A DNA stretch of 64,000 bases from a virus. The notes under the pieces were generated by a model that was not told the DNA's origin, did not search any database, and saw only the letters and a program-made list of their open reading frames with translations. Made by a program: the position numbers and the translations under genes. The DNA lies in the IMG/VR virus record IMGVR_UViG_3300047323_000304, positions 64,001-128,000 of that record; one strand, written 5' to 3'. Positions within the stretch are counted from its first letter, which is position 1. Each line of letters opens with the position of its first letter. This document shows, piece after piece, positions 1-61,920 of this stretch.

Positions 1-768
1 GATTTAAAATGGAGTGGAAATAGATATTCAAGAATGAGGAGTTTAATTTCAAGTTTTTCCGATTTTATAATTGATTTTCTGGACGAAGAATTCCCTGAAT
101 TTAAAAATCTTGTAAATAAAGCTGTATCAAAAGTACCTAAAGTTCCAGTAAGAAAGAAAACTATTATAACTCCTGAACAAGTGTATGCATTAAAAGATAA
201 ATTAATATCAGAAGGAAAAATACAACAAGCAACATTTTTAATGATTTTAGCAAGTTCAGGCTCAAGGGTGAGTGAAAGTTTGCGTATAGATGTGAATTTA
301 ATTGATGAAAATGTAACTGCATTTGGAGATTTGTTTTTAGAAACTACAGAAGAGATTAAAACCAAAGGACATGGGAAAACTGGTTATATGATGACTAGAT
401 TCTTAATAAAAGATGTATTTTTGCCTATGTACAAACAATGGATACCTATAAGAGAAGAAGTCTTAAAGAAAAATAATAAAGAACATAATTCAATGTTTAT
501 AAAAAGTAATGGAGACCCTATTACTGTAGCTGGTGTTAATGGTTGGATTAAAAGTTGGGAAAAGTTTTTAGGTGTCAATGCATACGCACATATGTTCAGA
601 CATTTTGTGGTTTCAGATCTTACGAGAAAAGGGTGTAGTTCCGATTTTGTGGTTGCAGTTATGAAATGGAAGACGGCATCAATGTATTCCGTTTACAATG
701 ATATTGAAGATAAGGATAGAACATGGAAAGAAGTTGATAAATTAAAAGATGTATTTAAGACTGAATAA
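1..768 (+). CDS. Tyrosine recombinase (phage integrase family), N-terminally truncated by window edge
   Basis: Frame is open from base 1 (DLKWSGNRYSR-MRSL...). Catalytic motifs: SGSRVSE (R), KTKGHGK (K), HMFRH (HxxR), and W...Y nine residues apart (MKWKTASMYSVY). Confidence 0.9.
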   Translation, partial: DLKWSGNRYSRMRSLISSFSDFIIDFLDEEFPEFKNLVNKAVSKVPKVPVRKKTIITPEQVYALKDKLISEGKIQQATFLMILASSGSRVSESLRIDVNLIDENVTAFGDLFLETTEEIKTKGHGKTGYMMTRFLIKDVFLPMYKQWIPIREEVLKKNNKEHNSMFIKSNGDPITVAGVNGWIKSWEKFLGVNAYAHMFRHFVVSDLTRKGCSSDFVVAVMKWKTASMYSVYNDIEDKDRTWKEVDKLKDVFKTE

Positions 769-781
769 AATTGACTTTTTA
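766..781. repeat. TAAAA-N6-TTTTA site (perfect), contains the recombinase stop codon
   Basis: TAAAA TTGACT TTTTA TCAAC. Confidence 0.7.
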
Positions 782-800
782 TCAACTTATATTGTATATT
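771..800 (+). promoter_or_regulatory. Putative sigma-A promoter TTGACT-N18-TATATT
   Basis: The -35 hexamer is the 6-nt spacer of the palindrome at 766-781; lies upstream of ORF 1079. Confidence 0.45.
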
Positions 801-1078
801 ATTCACTATTTTTTGCATAATATACAACCTAAAAACCCAATCTCATAGTCCAAGTATTCCGTCCAATAATAAAACCTATCCTAAAAAGACTATGAGATTA
901 ATCCATGAACAGATAATTAAATAAATATAAAGGTAAAATATTGTAGAACAATTACTATCCTAAATAACCAAACTAATATTCAGTATAATAACCATTCTAC
1001 AATTATTATTATGTCTTAAATATCAAAAAAATATGCATAGTTAAAATACTTAAAATTAAAAGAAAGGATGTGCTTTAA

Positions 1079-1285
1079 ATGAATGATTCAACAAGTAAAA
1101 TGATAGAAATGTTACAAGACCAAATAGGAAAAAGAGATGAGGTAATCAAGTCATTAAAGAGAGAAAATGAAGTGCAATCCATTGTAATTAAATCTAACAA
1201 GAAAAAATATAAAGGAATTATATTTGTATTATCTATCTTGACTTTAATATCTTCCGCAATAACTATATATAATATATTACTTTAG
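1079..1285 (+). CDS. Small coiled-coil protein with C-terminal transmembrane helix
   Basis: RBS AGAAAGGA; hydrophobic C-terminus GIIFVLSILTLISSAITIYNILL. Confidence 0.65.
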   Translation: MNDSTSKMIEMLQDQIGKRDEVIKSLKRENEVQSIVIKSNKKKYKGIIFVLSILTLISSAITIYNILL

Positions 1286-1355
1286 ATTTTAATTATAAAA
1301 ATTATGAAAGGACAGTGATTATCAAAAATATAAACAAGCGAAAGGAGTTTTTATT

Positions 1356-1670
1356 ATGCCAATATCTACTATGACCGAAGTAATTACAAATTTAGGATTC
1401 CCAATAGGATTAGTATTAATATTCTTAGTATTAATGGTAAGATATATAAATAAAAAAGATAAACTTACAAGAGAAGATACCAAGGAGCAAATAGGTATTT
1501 TAAGACAAGAAAATAAAGAAGATAAAGATATATTTAATAAAACTGTATGTTCTTTTAACAAAGCAATATCTGAATTTCAAGCAGTGAATAATAATATGTC
1601 ATCTATAGAGTGTAAGCTGAATACTATTGAGCAAGACATAACAGTAATTAAAACAAAAATGGACAAATAA
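1356..1670 (+). CDS. YvrJ-like / holin-like single-TM protein
   Basis: RBS AAAGGAG; N-terminal ITNLGFPIGLVLIFLVLMV resembles the YvrJ IxNxGFPI motif; followed by coiled coil. Confidence 0.65.
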   Translation: MPISTMTEVITNLGFPIGLVLIFLVLMVRYINKKDKLTREDTKEQIGILRQENKEDKDIFNKTVCSFNKAISEFQAVNNNMSSIECKLNTIEQDITVIKTKMDK

Positions 1671-1701
1671 AAAGAATAGTTAATTTTCATAACTACTCTT
1701 T
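1664..1701 (-). terminator. Rho-independent terminator (best on minus strand)
   Basis: Minus strand AAAGAGTAGTTA-7nt-TAACTATTCTTT then TTATTT; the single mismatch is a G-U pair only on the minus strand. Confidence 0.6.
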
Positions 1702-1758
1702 AAGTACCATCAAGAAATAAATAGTTACATATGGTAAAACAATACTGTTTATCTCTTA
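1664..1758 (-). ncRNA. Candidate ~95-nt antisense sRNA
   Basis: Bounded by a consensus promoter (1765-1792) and a minus-strand terminator; the only ATG is followed directly by TAA. Confidence 0.4.
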
Positions 1759-1764
1759 TCTATA

Positions 1765-1792
1765 ATTATACACTTTTAAAAATATATGTCAA
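1765..1792 (-). promoter_or_regulatory. Sigma-A promoter TTGACA-N16-TATAAT
   Basis: Both hexamers are perfect; no ORF downstream before the terminator. Confidence 0.6.
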
Positions 1793-1797
1793 TACTT

Positions 1798-1868
1798 AAA
1801 TGAGGGACTATTAATAAATTTATTACACTATAATGTGTTTTATTTTTATTAATAGTCCCTCATTTTTT
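1798..1868. terminator. 21-bp perfect inverted repeat, probable bidirectional terminator at the convergence point
   Basis: AAATGAGGGACTATTAATAAA (1798-1818) / TTTATTAATAGTCCCTCATTT (1845-1865), with a T-run continuing on the plus strand. Confidence 0.65.
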
Positions 1869-1873
1869 CGATT

Positions 1874-2050
1874 TTATTTTTCTAGTAATTCAATTAATTT
1901 CTTATGACATATATCAAATGCTTGCCTTTCTCCTAAATCTACAAGATCATTTGGGTGTTTGTTATAAGATTCATTAGATTTATTTCTTAATTGTTCAATT
2001 TCATCTAATAAATCCCATAAATCACTTCTTAACTGTTGGTAATCATCCAT
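1874..2050 (-). CDS. Hypothetical protein (58 aa, below ORF-track cutoff)
   Basis: RBS AAAGGAGA; MDDYQQLRSDLWDLLDEIEQLRNK...LLEK*. Confidence 0.6.
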   Translation of the reverse strand: MDDYQQLRSDLWDLLDEIEQLRNKSNESYNKHPNDLVDLGERQAFDICHKKLIELLEK

Positions 2051-2108
2051 AAATTAATCTCCTTTATATTTTATTAATAATTGTTAAACTTATCCTTTTA
2101 CAAAGACT

Positions 2109-2603
2109 TTATTTTTTAACTAGATCCATAAATTCATATTTTCCATAATCTGATTCTAATATTTGACTCCAGTAATCAATATCCCATTCATCTGTATTAA
2201 ATTTAAAATGTGTATCGGCTTCATATTCTTTGAAATTGACAGTTAAATATATCTTTTTGCAATGTGGTAAAAATTGTTGATATATGAATCCTCCACCTAT
2301 AACAAATACTTCTTCTTCAGAATCTTTATACTCATCAATTAATTCCTCTAAGTTATCTTTAAATATTAATGATTGTGTAGGACTAAATGTTTGAATTGTA
2401 TTCGAATTAGTTGTAAGAACTATATTATGCCTATTTGGCAAAGCACCATTCGGTAATGATTCAAAAGTCTTTCTACCCATAATGATTTTATGTCCTGTAG
2501 TCAATTCTTTAAATCGCCTCATATCTTCTTTAATATGAAATAGTAATTTATTATTATATCCTATTCCACCATTTATATCACTTGCTACTATTATTGATAA
2601 CAT
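2109..2603 (-). CDS. folA: Dihydrofolate reductase
   Basis: MLSIIVA...GGIG...LLFHIKEDMRRFKELTTGHKIIMGRKTFESLP...LPNRHNIVLT, FVIGGGFIY. Confidence 0.97.
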   Translation of the reverse strand: MLSIIVASDINGGIGYNNKLLFHIKEDMRRFKELTTGHKIIMGRKTFESLPNGALPNRHNIVLTTNSNTIQTFSPTQSLIFKDNLEELIDEYKDSEEEVFVIGGGFIYQQFLPHCKKIYLTVNFKEYEADTHFKFNTDEWDIDYWSQILESDYGKYEFMDLVKK

Positions 2604-3484
2604 TAAACACTTACCTCCATTTGTAATTTTCCCATATGTTTATAATCTTCTAGTTCGATATCATCTATGGTAAAGTCATAAAAATCTTTTATATTAGAAT
2701 TTAGTTTTAATTTTGGATTAGAAGAACATATATCCTGTATCTTATTATAATCTTCATGTGTAATATTTTTATGGAATTCTTTGAAAGTATCATAATTATA
2801 AATTGAATGAACTAATTTATCGTATCTGTCCAATTGTTCTTTCATTGCATCAAAATGATTTTCATATATATGAGCATTATTTATAATATGAGTTAATCTT
2901 CCTACTTTTAATCCAGTAGCTTGAGCAATCAAATGTGTTAAAACTGCATATTGAGTTGTATTGAATGGAACTCCTAATCCTACATCCCCAGAACGTTGAA
3001 CTAGCATACAATTTAATTCACCATCAGTAACATCCCACATACTAAGAAAGCAACAAGGTGCTAAATTCATTTCAGGTAAGTCTTGCCAATTCCAAAGATT
3101 AATCATCATTCTTCTATCTTGAGGATTTTCTTTAAGCATTTTAATTAAGTTATCAATTTGATGATATTGTTTTACCTGATATCCATAAGCCTTGCCAATT
3201 GTACCATCTTCTCCTTCCCATTCGTTCCAAACATTACAACCAACATCTTTTAAATCTTGCACTACATTAGATTGTTTTTGCATGATCCATAATATTTCTT
3301 TAACTGCCGTTTTAAAAAATACTTGCTTGGTTTTTAAAATTGGGAATTCTCTTTGTAAATCTACTGTTATAGATTGATGTGATAATTTTTTAGTTGGCAT
3401 ACCTGTTCTATTATTATCATAATAACCTACATCCATTATATTTCTAACTAAATTCATATATTGTAATTCATAATTGCTTATCAT
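2603..3484 (-). CDS. thyA: Thymidylate synthase
   Basis: NRTG, LAPCC catalytic Cys region, [19 protein letters not shown]; overlaps the folA start. Confidence 0.97.
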
Positions 3485-3513
3485 ATTTTCATTCTCCTTA
3501 TATCCTTTTTATT

Positions 3514-3873
3514 TTATCTTATACTAAATTTTTGTCCAGCAAATTCAAAATCACTTTCTACATTTTTATAAGCTTCAATATAACTATCCATTATTTTATC
3601 ATTATTTAAAAAATCTATATATTCATCAGATGAATTATTATTTATAAATTCTTTTTTATCAGTTTGATTATCTATCATATTATGTAATTCATTTTTGTCA
3701 TTTATTAATTGTTCCTTTTCTATTTGCAATTGCTTATTATCAGCTTTTAGACATATATTTTCCATTCTAAGCTTATTTAATTCTTGTAACATATCCATAA
3801 ATGTTGGTTTTCCACCTTTTGATTGTAGTTCGTCCACTTCTTCTGCCTTTTCTATTTCACATACATTACTCAT
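3514..3873 (-). CDS. Hypothetical coiled-coil protein
   Basis: ORF with RBS in the minus-strand operon. Confidence 0.7.
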   Translation of the reverse strand: MSNVCEIEKAEEVDELQSKGGKPTFMDMLQELNKLRMENICLKADNKQLQIEKEQLINDKNELHNMIDNQTDKKEFINNNSSDEYIDFLNNDKIMDSYIEAYKNVESDFEFAGQKFSIR

Positions 3874-3926
3874 TTAAATTCTCTCCCTCATATTTATATT
3901 TTGTTTCCCTTGATTACCATAATTTT

Positions 3927-3955
3927 ATTATAGAACATACGTTTTATAGTGTCAA
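3927..3955 (-). promoter_or_regulatory. Sigma-A promoter TTGACA-N17-TATAAT with AAATAAATTAAAAAGAATAC upstream element
   Basis: Perfect consensus with 17-nt spacer. Confidence 0.75.
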
Positions 3956-3973
3956 GTATTCTTTTTAATTTAT

Positions 3974-4237
3974 TTATGATTCACTATTTTTTCTATTTGA
4001 ATAACAATTTCTATCTTTTAATAAGCAATACTTATTTCTATAAAGGAAACTACATTTAGTTGGTTGTTGATTACATTTTACGAATCCATATTTTATAGTA
4101 GTAAAAAAATTAACTATGGGATTTCTTATACATCTATACCATAAATTGCTTACTGATGGACATTCTTTATCACACTTATAACAATAATCAAAATCATCGT
4201 GATGTTTGCAAAATACATGATTAAATTTTTGATTCAT
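3974..4237 (-). CDS. Cys-rich hypothetical protein
   Basis: RBS AGGAGG; several Cys pairs. Confidence 0.6.
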   Translation of the reverse strand: MNQKFNHVFCKHHDDFDYCYKCDKECPSVSNLWYRCIRNPIVNFFTTIKYGFVKCNQQPTKCSFLYRNKYCLLKDRNCYSNRKNSES

Positions 4238-4413
4238 AATTTTACCTCCTAATAATGTTTTAAAATTTAAGATTTATTAACTTTTTATCTTTATTTCATC
4301 TATTTGCATCCATTGAAGAATGCTAATATTATTGCAAGAATTAATATATATCCTACTATTATGGCACTCAGAACCATAGACACCACCTCTTTTCTTAGTA
4401 AGATTTTTATATG

Positions 4414-5694
4414 TCAATTATAACTCACTTCCTTTCCTTCTTCTCTAATACAAACAAATGTAGGAAATTGTAATGATATTAATTTAGTTTTCTTATCCAT
4501 AGTTTCTTCTTTGTATTTAACTTCTAAAATTCTATCTATGTATTTATCACGATTTGTCCAATATTCTTGACGTTGTTCATCAGTGTATCCTGAACCAACA
4601 TTAACTTTATTTCCTTTGTAGTCTATTATGAAACTACCCAATACTCCTTTATATTTCCCATCACCCTCCTCGTATCCAATGATACTACAATCGGCAGTCA
4701 TAAATTTTTTAATCTTGAGAATACCATTATGCCTCTTATTTTTCCATTCACAATCTTTTATAGCCATTAAGCCTTCTTTATCTTCTGAAGTTGCTATTTC
4801 TAGGTATTCTGCAATTACATCAATGTTATCACCTTCATAATATATTTTAGGAATATCTAAATTTATCAATCCTTTTTCTAATGCTTCTTGTTTTAATTGT
4901 TTTAATAACTTAAGTCTTTCTTTATATTTTAATTTACTTTTTCCTTGATAAAATTCTTCTATCGGTATTAAATCAAATACTATGAAATCAATCATTGTTT
5001 TATCTTCTGCATCTGAATTTACTATTGAAGTAGTTAATCTAAAGTTCTCACCATTTGATAGATTATCTATATTTTTTCTAACTAATTCACCATTAAAATA
5101 ATATCCTTTGAAACTTAATTGTTCTAGTTGTTGAAGTATATGACCTAGATTTGATAATTCTTTGCCTTGTCTACTAAGCATAATTCCATTTACATCAGAA
5201 CAATTTATACCATTTAATTTATCTTCTAAACAAAACCAAGTACCTTGTTTTAATGGATATTTATGAATTGGATATGCTTGTTGAATATTAAATTCTGGTA
5301 TTAACCCTTTTATAGCTTTATTTATACTTTTTCCAGATATATTACACCTCAAGTCTTTGGTAAGTACATTGATCCATAACTCTTGTTCTTCATAAGATCT
5401 AATGCTCAAAAATATCAATACTCTGTTTCTAAGCACATCATTGATATTGCTTTCTGATAACTTATTCAACATATCAAATCCATTAGTCCAAGTTTTATCG
5501 TTATTGATTATAAAATCATGTAATAAGTTTCTTAATTTATTTTCACTAAATCCATATTGCAAATTATCGTCATATGTATATTTAAGGATATCTGTAAAAA
5601 CTTTATTATCAGCATTCTTTTTAATTATTGTTATCTTATCATTAGTTGATGATGTACCTCTTAAATCTTCAATTATTTTTATTACATTTTCCAT
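4414..5694 (-). CDS. lig: ATP-dependent DNA ligase
   Basis: Motif I EDKLNGIN, NGEL, FIVFD, EGLMAIK, LKIKK; OB-fold VGSGYTDEQR...QFPTF. Confidence 0.92.
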   Translation of the reverse strand: MENVIKIIEDLRGTSSTNDKITIIKKNADNKVFTDILKYTYDDNLQYGFSENKLRNLLHDFIINNDKTWTNGFDMLNKLSESNINDVLRNRVLIFLSIRSYEEQELWINVLTKDLRCNISGKSINKAIKGLIPEFNIQQAYPIHKYPLKQGTWFCLEDKLNGINCSDVNGIMLSRQGKELSNLGHILQQLEQLSFKGYYFNGELVRKNIDNLSNGENFRLTTSIVNSDAEDKTMIDFIVFDLIPIEEFYQGKSKLKYKERLKLLKQLKQEALEKGLINLDIPKIYYEGDNIDVIAEYLEIATSEDKEGLMAIKDCEWKNKRHNGILKIKKFMTADCSIIGYEEGDGKYKGVLGSFIIDYKGNKVNVGSGYTDEQRQEYWTNRDKYIDRILEVKYKEETMDKKTKLISLQFPTFVCIREEGKEVSYN

Positions 5695-5794
5695 TCTTCA
5701 TATCTCCTTTATTACTTATATTGTTTTTAATTTATTTACTATGTATATTTGTAATGGTTGTCCTATTCAGTATGACTTCTTCCTTACATCTATA

Positions 5795-5823
5795 ATATTA
5801 CTACTTTTGGATTGATATGTCAA
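5795..5823 (-). promoter_or_regulatory. Sigma-A promoter TTGACA-N17-TAATAT
   Basis: Upstream of ligase; preceded by AAATAAATTAAAG. Confidence 0.6.
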
Positions 5824-5843
5824 TAATATTATCTTTAATTTAT

Positions 5844-7457
5844 TTAATTTAATTGTAATGGAATATATGAGCCAGTATTTGTAGCAACTAATTCATCATA
5901 TTCAAATGGTTTAAATCCAAATTCCATTACTAATTCTTGTTCTTTCTTAGACATATCACTATATCTTTTTGTCATAAAATCATCAGGTAGCCAGTTTTTA
6001 CCTTTACCTGCCAAAATATTCAGTTGTTTTAATAAATTTTCATCTTTATACTTCACATGGATTGTACCTTTATGGTAAACATCAAGATAAAAGAACTCAG
6101 CATCTATATTTTTTTCACAATGTTGTATTTTATTTCTTATTTCATCTGTGTCTAATATGTATTTCTTCCCTGTCAAATTATTAAATATTATAGTTAAATC
6201 TTTTAATACGTCTGGCACACATTGAAAAGAATATTCTAAATAACAAGGTATTATATTTTTGCCTTTTATCATATAAGCATTATTTGTCCTCCACCCAGAA
6301 TACATATGTATGTTTTTGTTCCATGAAGCATCTGTATAACTATATTTACTAGTTAATTTATCAAATACTTCTGCAACAGTGCTTTCGTAAGATTTTGGAA
6401 TAGAACTCATAATTTTCTCATAAAAATATCTACAATTTTCAATTGTAAAAGGTATATCTTCTTGTCTTTCCATATTATAAGAAAAATCATTTCTTAATTT
6501 AGATGGAAGTCTTGACATAAAATCTGTTTCAGTTATAAACTTTTGCCAGTACTCTAGTGTCAATTTTGAGATATAGTCATTAATTTTTATATGTGTCCGA
6601 GATAAGGTTTCACTATCCATTATGCCTATTTCTTGTTTTATATTTAATCCTTTAAATAAATGTTTAATACGTTCTCTCTCTTCATATAGTTTTATTACTG
6701 AATTTTTGCAAATATTATATTCCATTACTAATTGCTGTAATTTACTCATTTTTGGCATAACAGATTTAAAACTGTAATCTGAATTGATATTTATATTCTC
6801 TCTTTTAAAATTCTGTTCAAACATAGTTTCGGTGTTTTTCATTGGTATTTTCAAATATATTATTGCAATTTCAACATCAGTCTTTCTTTCTGAGTATATA
6901 AATGCTTCCTGTATATATTCTATATCTGCATTATATTCATCTAATTTGTTTAGTAATTCTATTCTTTCTTTGGAATAAGGGTTTTTTATTGTTTCTGCAT
7001 TTATTATACAAAGTATCTTACCACCTATTCTTTCTTGAATACATATTGATTTTAGCAAATGTTTTGTTCCATTGCTAAAAGGAACGTTTTGAATTATTAA
7101 GTCATAAAATCTTGGTGCATCAAAAGTTAAATAATCATTCCATATAACATTATAATTTTGTCCTCTTAATAAACTATTCAATGTTTCATCGTATTCTATA
7201 ACATCAAATTTAACATATTTATCTATATCTGTTTCTGGATTACTATATTTTGACTTATATTTGTTCTTTTCTTTTAAATAGTATTCTTTATAGGCTTGTA
7301 TTATATCTCCTTTTCCACACTCAGGTTCTAATATGTACTTACATTTACTAAATCCATAGTTATCTGATTGTAACTTATCCAACATTTTAAAGACAAGTTC
7401 TTTTGGAGTCGGATAGAAGTCTTGGTTGTTATCAAACATTATTATCATTCCTTTCAT
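5844..7457 (-). CDS. DUF4942-type class I SAM-dependent (N6-adenine-like) methyltransferase
   Basis: QDFYPTP, LEPECGKGDI (SAM motif), LIIQNVPF (variant of NPPF); C-terminal YHKGTIHVKY...LNILAGKGKNWLP. Confidence 0.75.
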   Translation of the reverse strand: MKGMIIMFDNNQDFYPTPKELVFKMLDKLQSDNYGFSKCKYILEPECGKGDIIQAYKEYYLKEKNKYKSKYSNPETDIDKYVKFDVIEYDETLNSLLRGQNYNVIWNDYLTFDAPRFYDLIIQNVPFSNGTKHLLKSICIQERIGGKILCIINAETIKNPYSKERIELLNKLDEYNADIEYIQEAFIYSERKTDVEIAIIYLKIPMKNTETMFEQNFKRENININSDYSFKSVMPKMSKLQQLVMEYNICKNSVIKLYEERERIKHLFKGLNIKQEIGIMDSETLSRTHIKINDYISKLTLEYWQKFITETDFMSRLPSKLRNDFSYNMERQEDIPFTIENCRYFYEKIMSSIPKSYESTVAEVFDKLTSKYSYTDASWNKNIHMYSGWRTNNAYMIKGKNIIPCYLEYSFQCVPDVLKDLTIIFNNLTGKKYILDTDEIRNKIQHCEKNIDAEFFYLDVYHKGTIHVKYKDENLLKQLNILAGKGKNWLPDDFMTKRYSDMSKKEQELVMEFGFKPFEYDELVATNTGSYIPLQLN

Positions 7458-7486
7458 TATCTATAATTTATTTAGTTTTCTATATT

Positions 7487-7515
7487 ATAGTAACATATCC
7501 ATTAATTTATTGCAA
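7487..7515 (-). promoter_or_regulatory. Sigma-A promoter TTGCAA-N17-TACTAT
   Basis: Upstream of the methyltransferase; preceded by AAATAAATTAAAAATAATG. Confidence 0.55.
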
Positions 7516-7547
7516 CATTATTTTTAATTTATTTTATAAATTTAGAT

Positions 7548-7573
7548 ATAAGAAAAGACGAGTTCCCTCGCCT
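7548..7573 (-). terminator. Rho-independent terminator
   Basis: AGGCGAG-GGAA-CTCGTCT-TTTCTTAT just after the stop at 7581. Confidence 0.7.
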
Positions 7574-7580
7574 AATCTAT

Positions 7581-7820
7581 TTATTCTATTAATGCTAATT
7601 CTTCATATATTGCTATATAAGTATGTCCTTGTGGGATATTTAAAGCCTCAGAAGGTGGTAATTCTTCAAAATAATTATCCATATAGATATAATATAAATC
7701 TGTATCGTCAGAATTATGTATTAATTTAACTATACCTTTTTCTCCAATTGCTTCAGGATGAACATTATCTTTATGTGGCATTATTAGAACTTTACTATTT
7801 AGTTTTATATTTTGTATCAT
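7581..7820 (-). CDS. Hypothetical protein
   Basis: ORF with RBS AGGTGA. Confidence 0.65.
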   Translation of the reverse strand: MIQNIKLNSKVLIMPHKDNVHPEAIGEKGIVKLIHNSDDTDLYYIYMDNYFEELPPSEALNIPQGHTYIAIYEELALIE

Positions 7821-7829
7821 TTAAATCAC

Positions 7830-8054
7830 CTACTTAAAATTAATTTTAAATTTACTAACTAAATAATCAGTAATTATAGAAATAGATGCTCCACCAACAA
7901 TAATTATTCCCATTTGGAAGTTACTACATTGTAAATTTCTATCATAATATAGCAATAATCCTAAAATCATTAACATCATTCCACCAGCATATAAGACTCC
8001 TACATATAGCATACATACTAGCCACTTTACTATTTTATATAAATTAATTTTCAT
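7830..8054 (-). CDS. Two-TM membrane protein
   Basis: Two hydrophobic stretches. Confidence 0.65.
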   Translation of the reverse strand: MKINLYKIVKWLVCMLYVGVLYAGGMMLMILGLLLYYDRNLQCSNFQMGIIIVGGASISIITDYLVSKFKINFK

Positions 8055-8100
8055 AATTAACCTTCTTTCTAACTTTGTATTTAATTTATTAACAAGCTTT

Positions 8101-8116
8101 TAAAAGTATGATTTTA
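8101..8116. repeat. TAAAA-N6-TTTTA site (perfect)
   Basis: TAAAA GTATGA TTTTA CAAG, intergenic. Confidence 0.65.
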
Positions 8117-8132
8117 CAAGGATATTTTTGAT

Positions 8133-8197
8133 TATTTCCCAAAATTAATTTGTAAAGTATTGATATTGCTTATGTGTATAATCAATTTTGGGAAATA
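8133..8197. repeat. 14-bp inverted repeat after the dut stop
   Basis: TATTTCCCAAAATT / AATTTTGGGAAATA with a 37-nt spacer. Confidence 0.55.
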
Positions 8198-8205
8198 TAT
8201 TCAAT

Positions 8206-8862
8206 TTATTTAGTTGTAGATCCAAATCCACCTTGCCTAGTTTCTCCCTCATTAAATGAATCCCCATCTGTTAATAAGAATGGCATGAATAACATTTGAC
8301 ACATTCCATCACCTTGTTCAATTATCATTTCTTTGTTACCTTCATTTCTTAGCTTTACAAACATATGTCCTTCGTTTTTAGGGTTGTTATAGTAATCTCC
8401 ATCAATAACTCCTACTGTATTTGCAAGCCTACAATAATATTTAAATCCTAATCCACTTCTAGGAAAAGCCATTAATACTTCACCATCTTGCATATAAGCT
8501 TTTAATCCTGTAGGAACATTTATTTCTTCATTGGGTTGTAATGTAATATTGTAAGGTGCAAATATATCATATCCTGCCGACTTACTTGTACCACGTTTAG
8601 GTAGTTTTAATTCACAATCTAATATACTTTTTTCATCAAAATCTTTTAATCCTTGATCCATTGATACAAATTCAAATCCTCTTAATCTTTTAGGTTTTAT
8701 TACTTCTTTAATTGTTTCTTGCATTATTTTAGCCTCCATATCTATAATTGAATCATAATTGATTTTACTTTGTTGTCCTTGATAGCAATTAAGTCTATCT
8801 TTACAAAATCCACACATTCCTTTACACCTTAATCCATTTTCATACTCTTGTTTGTTTACCAT
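8206..8862 (-). CDS. dut: Trimeric dUTPase with Cys-rich N-terminal extension
   Basis: SAGYDI, PRSGLG, GVIDGDYY, CQMLF, RQGGFGST. Confidence 0.95.
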   Translation of the reverse strand: MVNKQEYENGLRCKGMCGFCKDRLNCYQGQQSKINYDSIIDMEAKIMQETIKEVIKPKRLRGFEFVSMDQGLKDFDEKSILDCELKLPKRGTSKSAGYDIFAPYNITLQPNEEINVPTGLKAYMQDGEVLMAFPRSGLGFKYYCRLANTVGVIDGDYYNNPKNEGHMFVKLRNEGNKEMIIEQGDGMCQMLFMPFLLTDGDSFNEGETRQGGFGSTTK

Positions 8863-8913
8863 AATTCTTTCTCTCCTTCAATTCTTATCATATCAGTTTA
8901 ATATATTTTGTTT

Positions 8914-9141
8914 TTAACTATAAAATTCATCTAATAATATATAAATATCTTCTGCCAAAATTTCCATCTCTGATACTAGTTTATTTTCATATTCAGTAAA
9001 TTCATATTCATCGAGATTTCCTACAATACTGACTATTTTTTCCGCTATAGGTTTAATCTCTTTTGTTGTATCTTGAAGCCTAATAAATATATCTTTTAAT
9101 TCTGTAAGTTCTGATAATATTTTTGAATCTTGTTTATCCAT
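8914..9141 (-). CDS. Hypothetical protein
   Basis: Co-oriented ORF in operon. Confidence 0.65.
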   Translation of the reverse strand: MDKQDSKILSELTELKDIFIRLQDTTKEIKPIAEKIVSIVGNLDEYEFTEYENKLVSEMEILAEDIYILLDEFYS

Positions 9142-9145
9142 TATT

Positions 9146-9538
9146 TTAATTCACATCCTCACTATTTGTTAAGCGTTTATATAATTCATGTCCTTGTCTA
9201 ATTCCAGTTAATTTATTACAAGTATATAGCATTAAAATATTTCTATTTTTTATTTCATCTTCTAGTAAATCTCTTTCATGGCAATATATTTGTTCAATAT
9301 AGTCATCATATTCTTTGATATATTTGTTATGAATTTCTTTATCATCTTGTTTATTTTGAATGTTCATTGACTTAAATTGTTTTAGTACTTCACTTAATAT
9401 ATTATCAATACTTTTACAGTTATTATTTTCATCTTTTATTGTTACATTAATTTGTTTTAATGCTTGTTCAATTGGACTAAAATCCTTATTAATGGACATT
9501 GCTAGAAATCTATGTCCAACAGTTTTTATACAATCCAT
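9146..9538 (-). CDS. Hypothetical protein with tape-measure-like segment
   Basis: RBS AAAGGAGA; ALKQINVTIKDENNNCKSIDNILSEVLKQFKSM resembles a TMP core repeat. Confidence 0.6.
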   Translation of the reverse strand: MDCIKTVGHRFLAMSINKDFSPIEQALKQINVTIKDENNNCKSIDNILSEVLKQFKSMNIQNKQDDKEIHNKYIKEYDDYIEQIYCHERDLLEDEIKNRNILMLYTCNKLTGIRQGHELYKRLTNSEDVN

Positions 9539-9594
9539 ATATTTAATCTCCTTTCATTGTATTTTAAAATGTAGTTTTTGTTGTCTTTTAATAT

Positions 9595-10359
9595 TTAATC
9601 AGTTATATCTATTTTTCTATGAATTAATGCTTGGTATACACTATCTGGTATTTCATTTTTATATTCTTCAGCTACTTCTACAAAAACATTTTCTCTAAAT
9701 TCTTTGTAAGCATTAAATGCTTCTATTTCAGTAGGAAAAGTACCTAAATAACATGATTTTTCATCACTACCTACTGCATTTGCAGAAAATGTTCCACTAT
9801 CCTTACGACTAGTTCCCAATAAGGTTTTCCCACGATAATTCTTTCTATTAATTAATAATAGATTTATTCTTTGAGGGATAAATACACAAATTTCAGGCGA
9901 ATATATTTTATTACCTTTATGTAGTATATCTTTATCAATCTCCATTCTTTCATTTCTAACTTCATAATAATTGTCTTTATACCATTGAGCATAGTTCTGA
10001 AAGTTTAACCATTCATCACATACTATACAACCTTCGTATGCACCTCTTTGTCTTTTAGGAATAAAACATCTTCCAAGCATATTATGCCAAGTTTTATATT
10101 CTATAGTATTTTTATTTGTTCCTAAACTAAGTTTATGTATACCCTCCCCTGTATAAGCGACACCATAAATTGTTTTATCGTATGGGTTCTTAATAACACC
10201 TTTTTTAAAGTTACTATATGTAGTTTGTTTAGTATGTTTGTGTTCATCTTGAAATTGAATGGTTATATTATTTGTATTTTTAAATTCTATTATTTTCATA
10301 ACTGTACCATGTTTATTCTTATTTTCTTCTCCAATATATTTACTATAATCTCTATTCAT
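9595..10359 (-). CDS. Free-standing HNH homing endonuclease with AP2-like C-terminus
   Basis: YKTWHNMLGRC, VCDEWLNFQNY, IDKDIL...YSPEICVFIP..IN, YLGTFPTEIEAFNAY; paralog of 63227..63991. Confidence 0.85.
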   Translation of the reverse strand: MNRDYSKYIGEENKNKHGTVMKIIEFKNTNNITIQFQDEHKHTKQTTYSNFKKGVIKNPYDKTIYGVAYTGEGIHKLSLGTNKNTIEYKTWHNMLGRCFIPKRQRGAYEGCIVCDEWLNFQNYAQWYKDNYYEVRNERMEIDKDILHKGNKIYSPEICVFIPQRINLLLINRKNYRGKTLLGTSRKDSGTFSANAVGSDEKSCYLGTFPTEIEAFNAYKEFRENVFVEVAEEYKNEIPDSVYQALIHRKIDITD

Positions 10360-10506
10360 TCTATCTCCTTTTTAATTTATTTTATTTGTAAAGTTCCCTT
10401 AAATTATCTGTTTTATGAAAACATTTTGTATATTATGCAATAAAAAGTGAATATTATAACATATTTATACACTAATTTTACATAATATACGTTGTTAGTT
10501 TTTAAT

Positions 10507-11901
10507 TTATTTTGTTAATTCTATAATATACTGATTGCTTGAACCATACATAGGATTATCACATTTTTTATCAAGCTCAAACTTCCCACATATTATTTTA
10601 TCAATATATTTAGTTGCTTCAAAATCTTTAATATCATCATATTCATAGCCAGTCCAAACATAAATACTGCAATCTGGAATTTCATTTCTTACACGTTTAA
10701 CAATATCTAATAATTCGTTTTTGTTATATGGAGCAAATGGTTCTCCTCCAAGAAGGGATAACGCTTTTCTTTCTTTACAAAGATTAACAATTACATCAAT
10801 ATCTAATTTAAAATTATTATCATGTTCCCATAAAGATTCATTATGGCACATATAACATTTATGAGGGCAACCTTTAAACCATGCAGAAACTCTTAATCCA
10901 TCACCATTTAGTATTTCAAAATCATGAATTCCTTCTGAAATCTCTCTACCATAATGTACTTCTCTTTGTTCATCTTCTTGTTTTTTACCATCATTTACTC
11001 TAGTATCTCCATCTATTTCATAATAAGAAAGATAACCACAGACACGATCCACTACTATTAATTTTGTACTACCACATTTATCACAATGAGGATTTGATTT
11101 GTCATATTCTATAACACTTCTGCCACATTCTTTGCATGTTACTGAGTCAAAATTAACTCCTTCATATAATCCCATTTTCATAGCTTGTCTTGTTACTTGT
11201 GATATTGCTTTTAAATTATGGTTAATTGGATATTCACTATAAAAAATATGTCCAGCATTACTTAAATCAAACATTGGTTTTTCAATTCTCATCTTTTCAA
11301 ATGGATCAACTTTAGCAGTAACATTTACATGAAAACTATTCATTATGTATTTTTTATCTGTGACTCCTTTTATAATTCCAAAATGTTCAAACTCTTTATT
11401 TCTACAAGTCTCGGCATAACCTTCTATTGGACTACCATAGATTGCAAACATTAATCCATATTCTTTTATAGCCTCATCTTTCCATTTATTTAGATGCTCT
11501 AAGACTTCTATCGCAAATGAATTATCTTCGTGTATTTCTTTTCCTGTCATTAATAAACTAACTTCATTTAACCCTAGATAACCATATGACCATGTAAAAG
11601 TCTTAATTACTTCTTCTATTGTATCAGTTGGTTTTAATCTCATATGACAACCACCATCACAAAAGAATAATGGATTTGAACTTGCTTCTACATTTTTCAT
11701 TCTGTCAAATTGCCATAAATGACCTTCAGTTGCTAAGTCAAAATATTCTTTTAAAGTTTTAAAATATGCTTCTTTATCTTTTGTGTGTCTGTATAATAAT
11801 GCTGGTCTTACTGTATTAATTGTTATTGCTCCACAGTTTGCACGACCATTAAAAACTGGTTCTCCTTTTTCATTAAACCATACTGACAAATACGCTCTAC
11901 A
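10507..11901 (-). CDS. nrdD: Class III ribonucleotide reductase NrdD exon 2, fused in frame to NrdG activase
   Basis: Begins with CRAYL (active-site Cys); Zn site CKECG..CDKCG; glycyl-radical RVCGYL; then, with no stop, GDGLRVSAWFKGCPHKCYMCHN (CxxxCxxC) and LLGGEP of NrdG. Confidence 0.92.
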   Translation of the reverse strand, partial: CRAYLSVWFNEKGEPVFNGRANCGAITINTVRPALLYRHTKDKEAYFKTLKEYFDLATEGHLWQFDRMKNVEASSNPLFFCDGGCHMRLKPTDTIEEVIKTFTWSYGYLGLNEVSLLMTGKEIHEDNSFAIEVLEHLNKWKDEAIKEYGLMFAIYGSPIEGYAETCRNKEFEHFGIIKGVTDKKYIMNSFHVNVTAKVDPFEKMRIEKPMFDLSNAGHIFYSEYPINHNLKAISQVTRQAMKMGLYEGVNFDSVTCKECGRSVIEYDKSNPHCDKCGSTKLIVVDRVCGYLSYYEIDGDTRVNDGKKQEDEQREVHYGREISEGIHDFEILNGDGLRVSAWFKGCPHKCYMCHNESLWEHDNNFKLDIDVIVNLCKERKALSLLGGEPFAPYNKNELLDIVKRVRNEIPDCSIYVWTGYEYDDIKDFEATKYIDKIICGKFELDKKCDNPMYGSSNQYIIELTK

Positions 11902-12176
11902 CATGTTCTCTAATATTACTATTAGCATTGACTATATCATCTCTCCGACTCACCACGTCATCAACAAGCCCTTCGCTTGGAATTGGTGCTTATCTCCAAT
12001 CCTACTCTGCTACACTCATCACAGATAGTCGATACACATTTATCTATATTACTATAGAATTTAGCACGGTCTCAGCTTTAATATGTTATTAAAGTCCTAA
12101 CCGTTAGCATTACAATTAAGTAACACACCCTATAAGCTAGGTTCAAAGGGTTTTACATGGGCTAGTAGTTTTACAG
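11902..12176 (-). ncRNA. Group I self-splicing intron (275 nt, no ORF) in nrdD
   Basis: Removal restores LAPMG|CRAYL in frame. Exon 1 ends in U, intron ends in G, IGS GCCCAU pairs with exon AUGGGU. Core-like segments GCTAACGG, TGTATCGACTATC and GATATAGTC are present. Confidence 0.9.
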
Positions 12177-49411: not shown

Positions 49412-49457
49412 TCCTTAATATTCCAAGTAAAATTTCCATTTGATTGGGATTTTTAAT

Positions 49458-52583: not shown

Positions 52584-52769
52584 TCTATAAAATCATTTTT
52601 ATCATCTATATTTGCAATACAATCACATTCTTCATTTGAACAAGCATAAATCCAATAACCAAGTATTTCATTAGAATCAATTAAATCCATTTCTGAGTTG
52701 CATTTTTTACAATTCATATTTATCTCTCCTTATATTTTATTCAACTCTTGATAAAGCTAAAGTTTTAGT

Positions 52770-54117: not shown

Positions 54118-54163
54118 TATTCACCTCCTAAAGACACGATAAAAGAAGTATCTTATCGTCTTT

Positions 54164-55405
54164 TTAATTTCTAAATGGATCATTATCTTCAGTATCAATA
54201 TCCACCCATTTAATCCATTCTTCCTTTTCCACAATTCTAACTGGCTTAACTTTTTTAAATGTAATTGTATTATCATCTACACTTACAATGTCTTTATATT
54301 CTACTTCTAATTCTAATAATTTTCTATTTTCATTATCTTTAGAATAATATGAACTGCATTCAATACTATCATTATAGTTGCAGTATATTTGTTTATCTCC
54401 AATAGTTGCCATTATTTCTTCATTTAATTTATATTCAAATTCTTGCCTATTCCATTTATAACAACTAATTAATTTACCATCTTTTGAATCAACAAACTTA
54501 TAGAATTTTTTATCTTTAAAATATTCTTCTGCTGAAACTTCTTCATACTCCCTATCCTTTTTCTCATGCAAATCATCTAAATGTTTATATGCATTAATCT
54601 TATATTTGTTTTCATTAATTTTTATGTATTTAATAGGTTTGCCTAATATTGATTCAATTAAATCATCTACATCATCAAATTCTATCTTCTCATCTTCTGA
54701 TATCCCTTTGAAATAATCTTCTTCTAAGTATAAATCTTTTAATTTGTTTACTACTTCTACTAAATCAACTTGTCCATCTTCTTTAATCTCAACATCTTTT
54801 AATATCTTGCTGAAGTCTAATCCATACATTCCTCCCAGTTGTTCCTTTAATTCTTCTATTGTATTGATTTCTAAATTCATACAAGTTAATAAGACTCTTA
54901 TAAACTCCGATTTTGAGATGTTATAACCTTTATTTTTATACTTGTCAACTCTTAACATAGACATGATTGGATAATCTGTATTACTATTAAAATTTAATAT
55001 ACCTTGTATATTATCTAATAAGAAGTCATCATGTAAAATAAACTCCTCAGTTTTAAAATCAAACGCTCCCATGCATACAGTAAAATCAAATGTATCAAAT
55101 ATTTCTTGTGCATTTTTAAATCTTTTAAAATGAATTAATTGCACTAACTTTTCTCCCTTTTTAAATAAAGTAGCTTTCTTTGTATGTGCTAAAATCCAAT
55201 TAGAATCATAAACATCAGCTACAACATCTACTAAATCATCATCACTTCTAAAATAAACATCAATATCATTAATATCTTTATTAGTAAAAATACTATTAAT
55301 ACAACCCCCAGCAATAATAACATTACCATTTTTAAATGTCTCTACTAATCCCTTTCCTAAATAATTATATAATTTTCTTTTTTGAAATTCATAATTTGTA
55401 CTCAT
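54164..55405 (-). CDS. Pol-beta-superfamily nucleotidyltransferase-like protein
   Basis: IIAGGCINS...DINDIDVYF (GG...DxD); QLI...IFDTFDFTVCMGA; RVDKYKNKGY. Confidence 0.75.
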   Translation of the reverse strand: MSTNYEFQKRKLYNYLGKGLVETFKNGNVIIAGGCINSIFTNKDINDIDVYFRSDDDLVDVVADVYDSNWILAHTKKATLFKKGEKLVQLIHFKRFKNAQEIFDTFDFTVCMGAFDFKTEEFILHDDFLLDNIQGILNFNSNTDYPIMSMLRVDKYKNKGYNISKSEFIRVLLTCMNLEINTIEELKEQLGGMYGLDFSKILKDVEIKEDGQVDLVEVVNKLKDLYLEEDYFKGISEDEKIEFDDVDDLIESILGKPIKYIKINENKYKINAYKHLDDLHEKKDREYEEVSAEEYFKDKKFYKFVDSKDGKLISCYKWNRQEFEYKLNEEIMATIGDKQIYCNYNDSIECSSYYSKDNENRKLLELEVEYKDIVSVDDNTITFKKVKPVRIVEKEEWIKWVDIDTEDNDPFRN

Positions 55406-56376: not shown

Positions 56377-56392
56377 TAAAATCTTCATTTTA
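56377..56392. repeat. TAAAA-N6-TTTTA site (perfect)
   Basis: TAAAA TCTTCA TTTTA CTTG. Confidence 0.65.
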
Positions 56393-57368: not shown

Positions 57369-57591
57369 TAAATATCTTCTCCTTTCATTATAAAATTATT
57401 GATTTAACTATTTGTCTCTTATTACTTTTCTATTCTCTCCCCAAACTTCATGGCACTTAGAACATTGATATTCTCCACCTTCATCATCATATCCAAACCA
57501 TTCTACTTTTCCTTCGCAATAAGGACATACATAATAACTATCTTTAAATATTTTTAATTCTCTATGCTTAGACATATTCTTTCACCTCATA

Positions 57592-57813: not shown

Positions 57814-57829
57814 TAAAAGATAGATTTTA
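57814..57829. repeat. TAAAA-N6-TTTTA site (perfect)
   Basis: CTAAAA GATAGA TTTTAG, 2 nt from the stop at 57832. Confidence 0.65.
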
Positions 57830-58353: not shown

Positions 58354-58369
58354 TAAAATATAGTTTTTA
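58354..58369. repeat. TAAAA-N6-TTTTA site (perfect)
   Basis: TAAAA TATAGT TTTTA CTTGC, after the stop at 58377. Confidence 0.65.
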
Positions 58370-59791: not shown

Positions 59792-59807
59792 TAAAATCCA
59801 TATTTTA
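59792..59807. repeat. TAAAA-N6-TTTTA site (perfect), abuts the TIR gene stop
   Basis: TAAAA TCCATA TTTTA; stop at 59808. Confidence 0.7.
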
Positions 59808-60740
59808 TTAAAATGATATATTATCTGCAATATTTTTTATTACTTGATAGTGTTCATTTTCTTTTATTTTTTCTTGCAATTCCCTTTGATTTCTTTCTTT
59901 TTCTATTTTAGACATTAAATCATTAGTTTCTTCTATACACAATACTAATGTGTCTCTATGATATTTTTTAACTTCTTCTATTGTTGTACCATTTAGAATT
60001 ATCTTTTTACCACTGATTGAAGCAATACTAGGTCTGTGCATAGAAGAAAATTGTGATGGATGATTCCATTTTTTAACAAAGATTGTTTTCCATTCATTAT
60101 TAGGATAATTAGATAATTCGAATGGAATTGTATATAAAGCACATCCTTTACTACCATCCATTCTAGGTGTAGTAACTTCATTAATTAATATTTTATTTAT
60201 CTTTATGGGAATAAAACTATTTTTTTGTATATTACTACTATTTTTAAAAGCTTTAAGTTTCTCTATAGGTGGTTCTTGAACTGGTGGAATATCTTCTTTG
60301 ATATCTAATATGCAGGCACACAAATCATTAAACATATTATCATAATTTTTAGAATATATATCATCACTTAAATCAAAATAATATTTCCCCAATAAATTTG
60401 TAGGTGCTGAATTAATCCATATTCCTTTTCTTAATATAAGTATAAATTTTTTATCATTTTGATTATTGAATAACTCTGCTGATATTATATCTCCCTCATA
60501 TCCTACACCACCTATTCTATTATTAGACTTTTCTTTATATTTCGGTGTGCATATAATTAATACAAAGTCATTATCTCTAATTTCTTTTTCCATAAAAAAT
60601 GGTAGTTTATCCCCTCCGCTTAAATTCCATGCATCTAGTCTACTCTCTATTCCATAATTTCTTAAATCAGTAGCGAGTTTTTTAACCCATGTTTTATGAT
60701 CTTCATCTTCCCAACTATACGATATAAATACTTTTTTCAT
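59808..60740 (-). CDS. TIR/SEFIR-domain protein with uncharacterised C-terminal domain
   Basis: KKVFISYSWED..HKTWVKKLA, LDAWNLSGGD...FME, FVLIICTPKY...GGVGYE (putative catalytic Glu). Confidence 0.88.
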   Translation of the reverse strand: MKKVFISYSWEDEDHKTWVKKLATDLRNYGIESRLDAWNLSGGDKLPFFMEKEIRDNDFVLIICTPKYKEKSNNRIGGVGYEGDIISAELFNNQNDKKFILILRKGIWINSAPTNLLGKYYFDLSDDIYSKNYDNMFNDLCACILDIKEDIPPVQEPPIEKLKAFKNSSNIQKNSFIPIKINKILINEVTTPRMDGSKGCALYTIPFELSNYPNNEWKTIFVKKWNHPSQFSSMHRPSIASISGKKIILNGTTIEEVKKYHRDTLVLCIEETNDLMSKIEKERNQRELQEKIKENEHYQVIKNIADNISF

Positions 60741-60770
60741 AGTATTTTACCTCCTTTAATTTTATTTACT

Positions 60771-60786
60771 TAAAATTCATCATTTA
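60771..60786. repeat. TAAAA-N6-TTTTA site (1 mismatch), upstream boundary of the TIR gene
   Basis: TAAAA TTCATC ATTTA; contains the stop of ORF 60784..61176. Confidence 0.6.
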
Positions 60787-61176
60787 AAGTCTTTTAAAAA
60801 TCTTCTTATCTTCTTCGCTAACACACTCATCACATAGAATATTCCCATCATTGTCTAAATAAAAATCACATTCATCTACACCTAATGTTTCTTCGCATTT
60901 GCCACATGTATATCTTATATAATTTAATGGATTATACCCACTAATACTTGATCCTAGAATTTCTTCCATCTCTTTTATTGTGGTTTCTGATACTTTTACC
61001 TCTGTAATATCTGCTTCCTCTAAAATTCCATAAACCTCACTATGTTTTCCTAATATTTCACCAAAATATACTTCTTGTCCCATAGCTAATTTGACTGCCT
61101 TTTCATCTGCAATAAACATTCCTTCTACATCACCTTGTCTTCTACAATCCCAATAAAATTTATATAATTTCTTCAT
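60784..61176 (-). CDS. Conserved phage protein with C-terminal Zn finger
   Basis: LYKFYWDCRRQGDVEGMFIA...VYFGEILGKHSEVYG; CGKC..CDEC. Confidence 0.7.
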   Translation of the reverse strand: MKKLYKFYWDCRRQGDVEGMFIADEKAVKLAMGQEVYFGEILGKHSEVYGILEEADITEVKVSETTIKEMEEILGSSISGYNPLNYIRYTCGKCEETLGVDECDFYLDNDGNILCDECVSEEDKKIFKRL

Positions 61177-61233
61177 TACTTAACACTCTCTTTCTTTATT
61201 TTTAATTTATTTAATTACCATCAAACTAACTTT

Positions 61234-61620
61234 TTATCTAGACTTGTCTTCTATCGCTATAATTTCAACATTGTATTCATTACAGAACTCTTCTATTAAA
61301 GTATCCGAATATATGCAAGTATAATCAAACATATACCATTTAGATAATTCTTGATTCCTCCAATAGTCACTCAATAAAATTAAAGTTTGTCTTTCTTTAT
61401 AATTCTCAACTATAACAGTTTTAATAATTTCTTCGTCTTCATCTTTGAATGTTATTTCTGTCCCAACTGGTAAAACAGATTTTACACCTTTTTCAAGTCT
61501 ACAAATAGTTTGTTTTAATTGGTCTATCTCATGTTTAATTTCTATTCCATTTTTAATATTTTCTTTATATTCTTCTTTCTTGCGATCTAATGCCTTTTGA
61601 TATTTTTCCAAATCTGACAT
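61234..61620 (-). CDS. Hypothetical protein
   Basis: RBS AAGGAGA; stop inside the palindrome at 61221-61236. Confidence 0.7.
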   Translation of the reverse strand: MSDLEKYQKALDRKKEEYKENIKNGIEIKHEIDQLKQTICRLEKGVKSVLPVGTEITFKDEDEEIIKTVIVENYKERQTLILLSDYWRNQELSKWYMFDYTCIYSDTLIEEFCNEYNVEIIAIEDKSR

Positions 61621-61636
61621 CTTTTATTTCTCTCCT

Positions 61637-61879
61637 TTAACAATTAATTAATACTTTTCCTGTGCATTTACAATTAATACATTGAAATTCTTTACCTACT
61701 GGTATTTCTTTTTCGTAATCAAAGAAATCTTTAGGGTAATAATCCCATATACCAGTACCTTCACATTCAAAACAAGGCACATAAGCATAACCTCTTTCAG
61801 TATCTTGTTCAGTAACTTCAACCTCTATTGGCGTTGTACTCCAAAATCCTACATATGCTATAGCTTTTATATTTATCAC
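61637..61879 (-). CDS. Small DnaJ-type Zn-finger (CxxCxGxG) protein
   Basis: CFECEGTG...CINCKCTG. Confidence 0.65.
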   Translation of the reverse strand: MINIKAIAYVGFWSTTPIEVEVTEQDTERGYAYVPCFECEGTGIWDYYPKDFFDYEKEIPVGKEFQCINCKCTGKVLINC

Positions 61880-61892
61880 CTCTTTATCTTAC

Positions 61893-61920
61893 TTTGCATG
61901 AAACTTAACTTTCATGCAAA
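61893..61920. repeat. Perfect 11-6-11 palindrome
   Basis: TTTGCATGAAA-CTTAAC-TTTCATGCAAA. Confidence 0.75.

Follow-up and report, generated by a model that had tools for sequence, protein, structure and literature searches.

Ordered palindromic sites with position-specific centres in an SPbeta-like phage as candidate crossover points between related phages

The DNA described here, which we call the window, comprises bases 64001-128000 (64,000 nucleotides) of the IMG/VR record IMGVR_UViG_3300047323_000304, and our subject is a 16-base palindrome, TAAAA-N6-TTTTA, that recurs in its intergenic spaces. The whole record, called G0, measures 193,897 bp and is a large Clostridium-type, SPbeta-like phage; its G+C content is 26%, and its DnaE-type polymerase shows 44% identity to the counterpart in Clostridium phage c-st and 39% to the polymerases of large phages of Clostridioides and Bacillus. 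Almost every gene of the window is on the minus strand; besides a replication block there is a long arm made up of small accessory genes. Related viral contigs were gathered by pattern scan and identical records merged, giving an independent set of the genomes G0, G1 and G23, the fragments G5 and G9 (L068) and the metagenome contig L072. Throughout, a site is the strict palindrome, and its 6-base centre, given on the coding strand, is termed the barcode. All 15 perfect and all 18 one-mismatch copies listed in the initial annotation are present in the window, and two further perfect copies were found, at 36854 (inside an open reading frame, ORF) and at 40329 (at an ORF 3' end). They are given below in window coordinates, the palindromes without strand, together with nearby ribosome-binding sites (RBS) and copies of a second repeated motif, the A box, to which we return later.

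1-768, plus strand: 3' portion of the gene for a 338-aa protein of the tyrosine-recombinase family (G0 63752-64768 in full); its stop codon is the TAA of the site at 766
766-781: perfect palindrome, overlapping the stop codon (TAA) of the tyrosine-recombinase gene
2085-2100: one mismatch, intergenic, with an A-box-like sequence 9 nt on
4261-4276: one mismatch, intergenic
8101-8116: perfect, barcode TCATAC, also in the relative G23 and the fragment G9
9565-9580: one mismatch, intergenic
10400-10456: two one-mismatch copies (10400 and 10441) within one spacer
14180-14195: one mismatch, then an A box
14835-14850: one mismatch, then an A box
17263-17278: perfect, barcode ACCAAA, between an A box and TATAAT
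22825-22840: one mismatch, then an A-box-like sequence
23608-23623: one mismatch, then an A box
24359-24374: one mismatch; perfect in the G23 ortholog, whose barcode differs at one base
24998-25013: perfect, barcode TAGATA, RBS 13 nt on
26185-26200: perfect, barcode TTCCAA, A box 9 nt downstream
36854-36869: perfect match within ORF 36326-37648, probably a chance copy
38455-38470: perfect, barcode GAATAA, also in G5, and in G23 with one arm base changed
39717-39732: perfect, barcode AGTCTG; an A box and TTGACA-17-TATACT follow downstream
39793-39808: one mismatch, 60 nt from the site at 39717
40329-40344: perfect, at the 3' end of a 683-aa ORF (40328-42379), barcode ATAAAA (ATTAAA in the G23 ortholog)
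42571-42586: perfect, barcode GGTATG (AGTATG in G23 and G5), upstream of an A box and TTGACA-17-TATACT
44346-44361: perfect, barcode GATGTC, also in G5
45787-45802: perfect, barcode AATGTA, also in G1, G23 and G5
46667-46682: one mismatch, intergenic
49428-49443: one mismatch (TCAAA arm), barcode TGGAAA
52203-52218: perfect, barcode ATTTAA, also in G1, G23 and G5; RBS 3 nt on
52752-52767: one mismatch, then an A-box-like sequence
54140-54155: one mismatch, intergenic
56377-56392: perfect, barcode TGAAGA
57391-57406: one mismatch, intergenic
57814-57829: perfect, barcode TCTATC, bracketing one 165-aa gene together with the site at 58354
58354-58369: perfect, barcode ACTATA, also in G23
59792-59807: perfect, barcode TATGGA, also in G1, abutting the stop codon of a 310-aa TIR/SEFIR gene
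60771-60786: one mismatch, intergenic
61221-61236: one mismatch, then an A box

Perfect copies number 17 in the window against 2.30 +/- 1.73 in dinucleotide shuffles (shuffle maximum 7), so that the enrichment reported in the initial annotation holds, with a chance expectation lower than the 3-4 copies it had estimated. When the spacer was varied from N0 to N15, only N6 was enriched, with 17 copies in the window versus 0-6 at other spacings and 43 versus 2-9 in the whole 194-kb phage. This was equally true of intergenic copies, since 39 of the 43 lie between genes, although intergenic DNA makes up only 15% of the genome, and other spacings gave 0-4 intergenic copies. The one-mismatch class is real only in part: genome-wide, 52 intergenic matches at N6 compare with 12-49 at other spacings, a modest enrichment, and some of the 18 listed copies may therefore be background. 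In the window this class has 51 matches in all, most of them within genes. The copy at 49428 is a real member, because its barcode matches perfect sites in G23 and G5. Similar to what had been described from the window alone, sites trail the upstream stop codon (median about 20 nt, with several overlapping it) and precede the next RBS by 3-60 nt, in many cases by just 3-10 nt. They are concentrated in the accessory/early arm, and no intergenic copy occurs between the core replication genes at 26764-37648, the match at 36854 lying inside an ORF. Only the arms are common to all copies, each centre being unique within its genome: no centre was duplicated among the 43, 33 and 38 sites of three genomes, where about 0.5 duplicates were expected by chance, so that the comparison has low power. 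Extensions of the arms (GCAAG..., ...TCAA), first described as frequent and of two types, are seen in fewer than half of the copies, and orthologous copies do not have them in common. On the coding strand, spacer position 6 is A or C and T is very rare (3/43, 3/33 and 0/38 sites of three genomes), while its mirror position is unbiased, an orientation-dependent feature that no model considered here explains.

Location between a stop codon and an RBS, together with the orientation bias at position 6, would suit an element acting in RNA, be it in weak termination, in processing or as a hairpin operator of translation. Fold energies at the sites are however only 0 to -3.2 kcal/mol with z-scores near 0, indicating no stable hairpin, and the arms are invariant rather than covarying, with conservation that stops exactly at the 16-mer. 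A terminator scan of the coding strand found none at the sites, whose stems are A-U only. We consider this the least probable of the explanations discussed here.

Comparison with related uncultured phages shows that the centres are conserved by map position. Motif copies number 33, 32, 13, 7 and 8 in related IMG/VR records versus 0-5 for a reversed-pattern control, whereas more distant relatives found via DnaE have few sites (one complete 152-kb relative has 11, versus 3 for the control). G1 and G23 share about 50 of some 230 genes with G0, at a median amino-acid identity of 45%. Twenty-nine six-base centres are nonetheless common to at least two genomes, all in the same order, and identical 16-mers are fully collinear (longest increasing run) between G0 and G1 (10/10), G0 and G23 (13/13) and G1 and G23 (16/16), as well as between the fragment G5 and each of these three genomes (4/4); the inverted-orientation control gave 0-1. 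Aligned on the sites, identity is 100% across the 16 bases, but the very next base on either side is already at chance level (0.2-0.5), and at 22 of the 23 shared sites the neighbouring genes are unrelated. Moreover, orthologs with a mutated arm retain their centre (TGTTAC, GAATAA, TGGAAA), which puts the centre under constraint no weaker than that on the arms. As a reader of the arms alone would not conserve the centres, these observations suggest that the centre itself is read, site by site. For G0 itself the case is that of barcode conservation together with unrelated flanks.

The same comparison bears on the initial proposal of mobile gene cassettes. Sites do coincide with differing gene content, but a site holds its genomic position while the genes on both sides change, and orthologous upstream genes carry different sites, so that the site does not travel with the gene before it. 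An integron-like arrangement, in which a gene would carry its own 3' site and move as an excised circle between sites, could draw on the position of sites after stop codons and on the presence of tyrosine recombinases. It fits poorly with sites that do not move with the upstream gene, that keep a fixed order across genomes and that consist of 16 bp with no extended folded structure, and insertion at a site should give a duplicated barcode within a genome, of which there is none. The integron-like reading is thus largely refuted, and we rate it as highly improbable. Nor do the data suit the suggestion that a phage recombinase tolerates spacer heterology: spacers do differ from copy to copy, as first described, and are at the same time position-specific, conserved and collinear between genomes, which points instead to exchange between like-addressed sites of different genomes.

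Cultured phages provide a closer view of where homology ends. SPbeta (NC_001884) has 34 sites at N6 versus 0-3 at other spacings, and the c-st segment NC_007581 55001-105000, a stretch that includes the neurotoxin gene cluster, has 8 palindromes in 50 kb versus 2.3 expected. Five phages, Goe13, Goe11, phi3T, SPR and SPbetaL4, were compared with a 25-kb stretch from the accessory part of SPbeta (six phages in all), using homology blocks of at least 85% identity; shared blocks were about 96% identical and covered 31-57% of the SPbeta stretch. Among these six phages 15 barcodes recur with their order kept. Distinct block ends fall at most 3 nt from a site in 47 of 227 cases, compared with 2.3 under a uniform null and 12.0 under an intergenic-only null, and at most 10 nt away in 71 of 227 (3.9 and 18.8, respectively), the maxima of 300 intergenic-only nulls being 23 and 34. 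The ends cluster at site offsets 0/-1/-2 (first base) and 15/16 (last base), and some lie at the border of arm and centre where the partner's centre differs. In 106 site pairs with the same barcode, homology extended to both sides in 22, to one side only in 46 and to neither in 38, and on non-homologous sides the match stopped 0-2 nt past the 16-mer in 97 of 122. The flank that remains joined to the site can be either one, which is what reciprocal exchange within the site would give. Breakpoints between related phages fall on site edges in the cultured SPbeta group, whereas in the window's own family they show no excess over the intergenic null.

Breakpoints at site edges would also be left by any exchange that needs a shared 16 bp, and a passive explanation has to be weighed here. 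On this account the 16-mers are kept for some other cis function, are the sole identical stretch in otherwise unrelated spacers, and are exploited for that identity by host RecA or a phage annealing protein, with no dedicated site-specific enzyme. SPbeta-type phages do encode a Sak4-like annealing protein (by annotation), the A box, another repeated motif, also lies at a joint, and the promoter/stem-loop (PeSL) motifs of T4-like phages offer a precedent (PMC4122927). What such joints leave unexplained are the strictly two-fold arms at a spacing of exactly six bases and the centres that stay fixed in genomes at 45% protein identity; 16 bases are in addition very short for homologous exchange. 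We regard passive joints as an unlikely explanation.

A further alternative, raised at the outset in the form of MrpR/SPBRE-type operators, is that the sites are operators or roadblocks of a dimeric regulator, MrpR-like or other, which silences or times accessory and early genes, with exchange being incidental. The 5-6-5 dyad is a classic dimer site, promoters, A boxes or RBSs follow the sites, which cluster in the accessory/early arm, one G23 site overlaps a -10-like TATAAT, and spacer position 6 is strand-biased. G0 also has a candidate regulator in the SPbeta-type lysogeny module that lies beyond the window at G0 142271-146629, is syntenic in G1 and G23, and contains YopQ-like (473 aa) and MrpR-like (415 aa) proteins and an extended MazF-like toxin gene (257 aa); the MrpR-like protein (G0 143971-145218) scores 25.2 bits with PF22822, slightly below the cut-off of 27. 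A search with the YopQ-like protein found no cultured Clostridium-type relative. However, a regulator that reads only the arms would let the centres drift, and these are as conserved as the arms; many copies lie 3-10 nt before an RBS, which leaves no room for a promoter, and breakpoints at site edges are not predicted. A Sigma-70 promoter scan was uninformative in this AT-rich DNA (163 matches versus 162.6 expected). For MrpR in particular, the SPBRE boxes of SPbeta, derived here as ATACA-N7-TGTAT with a constant centre, occupy 11 places apart from the 34 palindromes, and the ten peaks of published MrpR ChAP-seq are every one at an SPBRE promoter (PMC10516654), with most of the palindromes outside them, which argues that the palindromes are not MrpR operators. 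Overall we hold the operator explanation to be somewhat less probable again than passive joints. Some SPbeta palindromes do lie 30-90 nt from an SPBRE box (76171/76201, 99498/99586, 129210/129297), for example at the aimR promoter, and at certain early promoters both classes may act next to each other.

Constant two-fold arms, unique centres kept by position, sharp 16-bp islands of identity and breakpoints at their edges lead us to read the sites as heterospecific targets. We think it fairly probable that they are ordered crossover points for exchange between related phages, probably via a phage tyrosine-type recombinase. The broader proposal, of a natural recombinase-mediated exchange system in SPbeta-like phages of Bacillus, Clostridium-type and related hosts in which the 6-bp centres are map addresses, is put forward more tentatively, as a real possibility. 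Readings of the sites as integron-like elements, MrpR operators or RNA hairpins are not favoured, on evidence of position, motif and fold energy. In the mechanism that we envisage, the roughly 40 TAAAA-N6-TTTTA sites of a genome would form an ordered set of heterospecific DNA crossover sites, whose two invariant 5-bp arms would be read by a two-fold symmetric protein, presumably binding as a dimer. Judging from the geometry of inverted arms around a 6-bp centre, this protein would most plausibly be a conserved phage member of the tyrosine-recombinase family, YopP-like or YomM-like. The centre would act as the address, being unique within a genome and holding its map position across related phages. 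Should a cell come to contain two related genomes, whether through co-infection or because a lysogen is superinfected, strand exchange across the 6-bp centre would probably be completed only between matching centres, and each crossover would yield a full-length collinear chimera even where the flanking genes have no homology, while unequal exchange inside one genome would be avoided.

Candidate enzymes are at hand, the initial annotation having already pointed to an intact tyrosine recombinase. G0 has five PF00589 tyrosine-recombinase genes, including the 338-aa gene whose stop codon overlaps the site at 766. Its product matches PF00589 with E=2e-16, has the R, HxxR, W and Y motifs visible in its sequence and aligns with SPbeta YomM from end to end (E=2e-7, with 20% identity over 323 aa), and is best taken as the YomM counterpart. 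A 315-aa Xer-like gene aligns weakly with YopP; viral contigs searched for its relatives yielded none. G0, G1, G23 and L072 have conserved and syntenic intact recombinases of the RHRY type, beside the barcode TAAATC. A check of the co-occurrence of recombinases and motif did not separate the candidate enzymes. Two intact tyrosine recombinases (376 and 701 aa) adjoin each other beyond the window at G0 180113-183718 and, with a 126-aa ORF, make up a Tn554-like three-gene transposon within the phage.

Several observations weigh against exchange at addressed sites as we propose it. The analysis tied no enzyme to the sites and saw neither products nor intermediates of recombination. The conserved arms are just 5 bp, whereas characterised tyrosine-recombinase core sites have arms of 9-13 bp. 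One orthologous pair of sites, beside a gene that is 89% identical, differs at 3 of 6 centre bases, and a 97%-identical gene block in G1 and G23 lies behind different barcodes, with homology that begins at an A box/RBS. Joints between G9 and G23 fall at stop or start codons or at introns (intron-like insertions). In the window's own family, 8 of 377 block ends lie at most 3 nt from a site versus 11.2 expected under the intergenic null, although these ends are fuzzy because the blocks are old (70-85% identity), and the breakpoint counts of the SPbeta group are not independent events because the genomes share ancestry. Keeping centres solely for later recombination would moreover amount to second-order selection, and a first-order function that reads the centre may exist; the avoidance of T at position 6 of the coding strand hints at a link to transcription. 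As to the G9 and G23 joints, the region at about 125.6-127.6 kb of G23 has clean insertions of 1.0-1.3 kb within a conserved ORF, one per phage, which look like introns or inteins with homing genes.

Heterospecific lox and FRT sets, acted on by Cre and FLP, serve recombinase-mediated cassette exchange, and in them the identity of the centre decides which sites recombine. Similar to these, the phage sites have constant inverted arms around a short asymmetric centre; different centres in one molecule do not recombine in the engineered sets, and partner sites across phage genomes have the same centre (29 shared here, 15 in the SPbeta group). The lox and FRT sets are products of engineering that have arms of 13 bp, a centre of 8 bp and a known enzyme, whereas a phage genome naturally carries about 40 sites, each with arms of 5 bp and a 6-bp centre kept by map position, their role being proposed from sequence. 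Xer/dif sites and the pdif modules of Acinetobacter plasmids (XerC/XerD) likewise place a 6-bp centre between inverted A/T-rich inner arm bases, and in pdif multiple sites bound exchangeable gene modules. There, however, the arms are 11 bp with distinct XerC and XerD sides, compared with symmetric 5-bp arms and chance identity outside them in the phages, and pdif modules change location while the phage sites are fixed and ordered. Integron attC sites also stand at gene 3' ends and involve a tyrosine recombinase, but they are folded single-strand structures of 57-141 bp that travel with the cassette, and neither is true of the phage sites. SPBRE (PMC10516654) shares with the palindromes the phage group and the form of dispersed intergenic inverted repeats, and differs in its constant 7-bp centre and its roughly 11 copies at early promoters that are bound by MrpR in ChAP-seq; the palindromes have a variable 6-bp centre, their 34 SPbeta copies lie elsewhere and no MrpR peaks are reported at them.

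No description of the motif was found in the literature searched, which included the SPbeta work and an SPbeta review; there the PeSL motifs of T4-like phages are the nearest described idea. These are repeated and intergenic and occur in hyperplastic regions (PMC2839356, PMC4122927), and like the palindromes they mark exchange points between otherwise unrelated genes. They are longer composite promoter-terminator repeats, alike everywhere and thought to use homologous recombination, unlike the phage sites with their unique centres. The A box of this phage is a closer analogue of PeSL than the palindrome. It reads AATAAATTA[AT]AAA(G/T)AATA and has about 100 copies genome-wide, co-oriented with the genes; examples in the window are:

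23590-23607: A box
38430-38447: A box
42550-42567: A box

Often the A box lies 9 nt downstream of a palindrome and is followed by TTGACA-17-TATAAT, a placement like that of an UP element, or directly by an RBS. Because the 97%-identical block of G1 and G23 starts there, it may serve as a short-homology joint in the manner of PeSL, or else as a promoter element specific to the phage.

Although phage genomes are mosaic, gene exchange between phages with almost no sequence homology is largely unexplained, and addressed crossover sites would offer a concrete and testable mechanism. If they act as we propose, phages too diverged for homologous recombination could reassort genome intervals in register, a pseudo-segmentation of the double-stranded DNA genome, and a shared address set would define a recombining gene pool. 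This would also account for the fast turnover, between fixed landmarks, of accessory genes such as the Gad2, Apyc1-like and TIR/SEFIR genes, and would represent a natural toolbox of many mutually orthogonal recombination sites. With copies in SPbeta, a model phage, and in cultured relatives of it, the motif allows a direct test of the idea in Bacillus subtilis.

The anti-defence-like genes of the accessory arm are:

window 54164-55405: Gad2-family gene
window 59808-60740: TIR/SEFIR gene
G0 159496-160188: gene for an Apyc1-like protein of metallo-beta-lactamase fold

An exact-protein look-up with a gene that has a site on either side gave a single SRA run, in which the match was this same phage at 100% identity, and a scan of genome contigs with the 683-aa ORF as query gave only unrelated cellular homologues. 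A Logan contig of run SRR26075501 matches the equivalent of window 1569-14066 at 100% identity over 12.5 kb, and raw reads of the phage therefore exist publicly. Two other elements recur upstream of palindromes. One is a small conserved hairpin, AATGGGGCTATTAC...TAGCC, located 25-45 nt upstream of several of them at the following places:

window, about 42600-42620, minus strand: AATGGGGCTATTAC hairpin
G23, 80320 and 132115: AATGGGGCTATTAC hairpin
G5, 5135: AATGGGGCTATTAC hairpin
G9: AATGGGGCTATTAC hairpin

The second is the recurrent sequence TTTTGGGAAATA.

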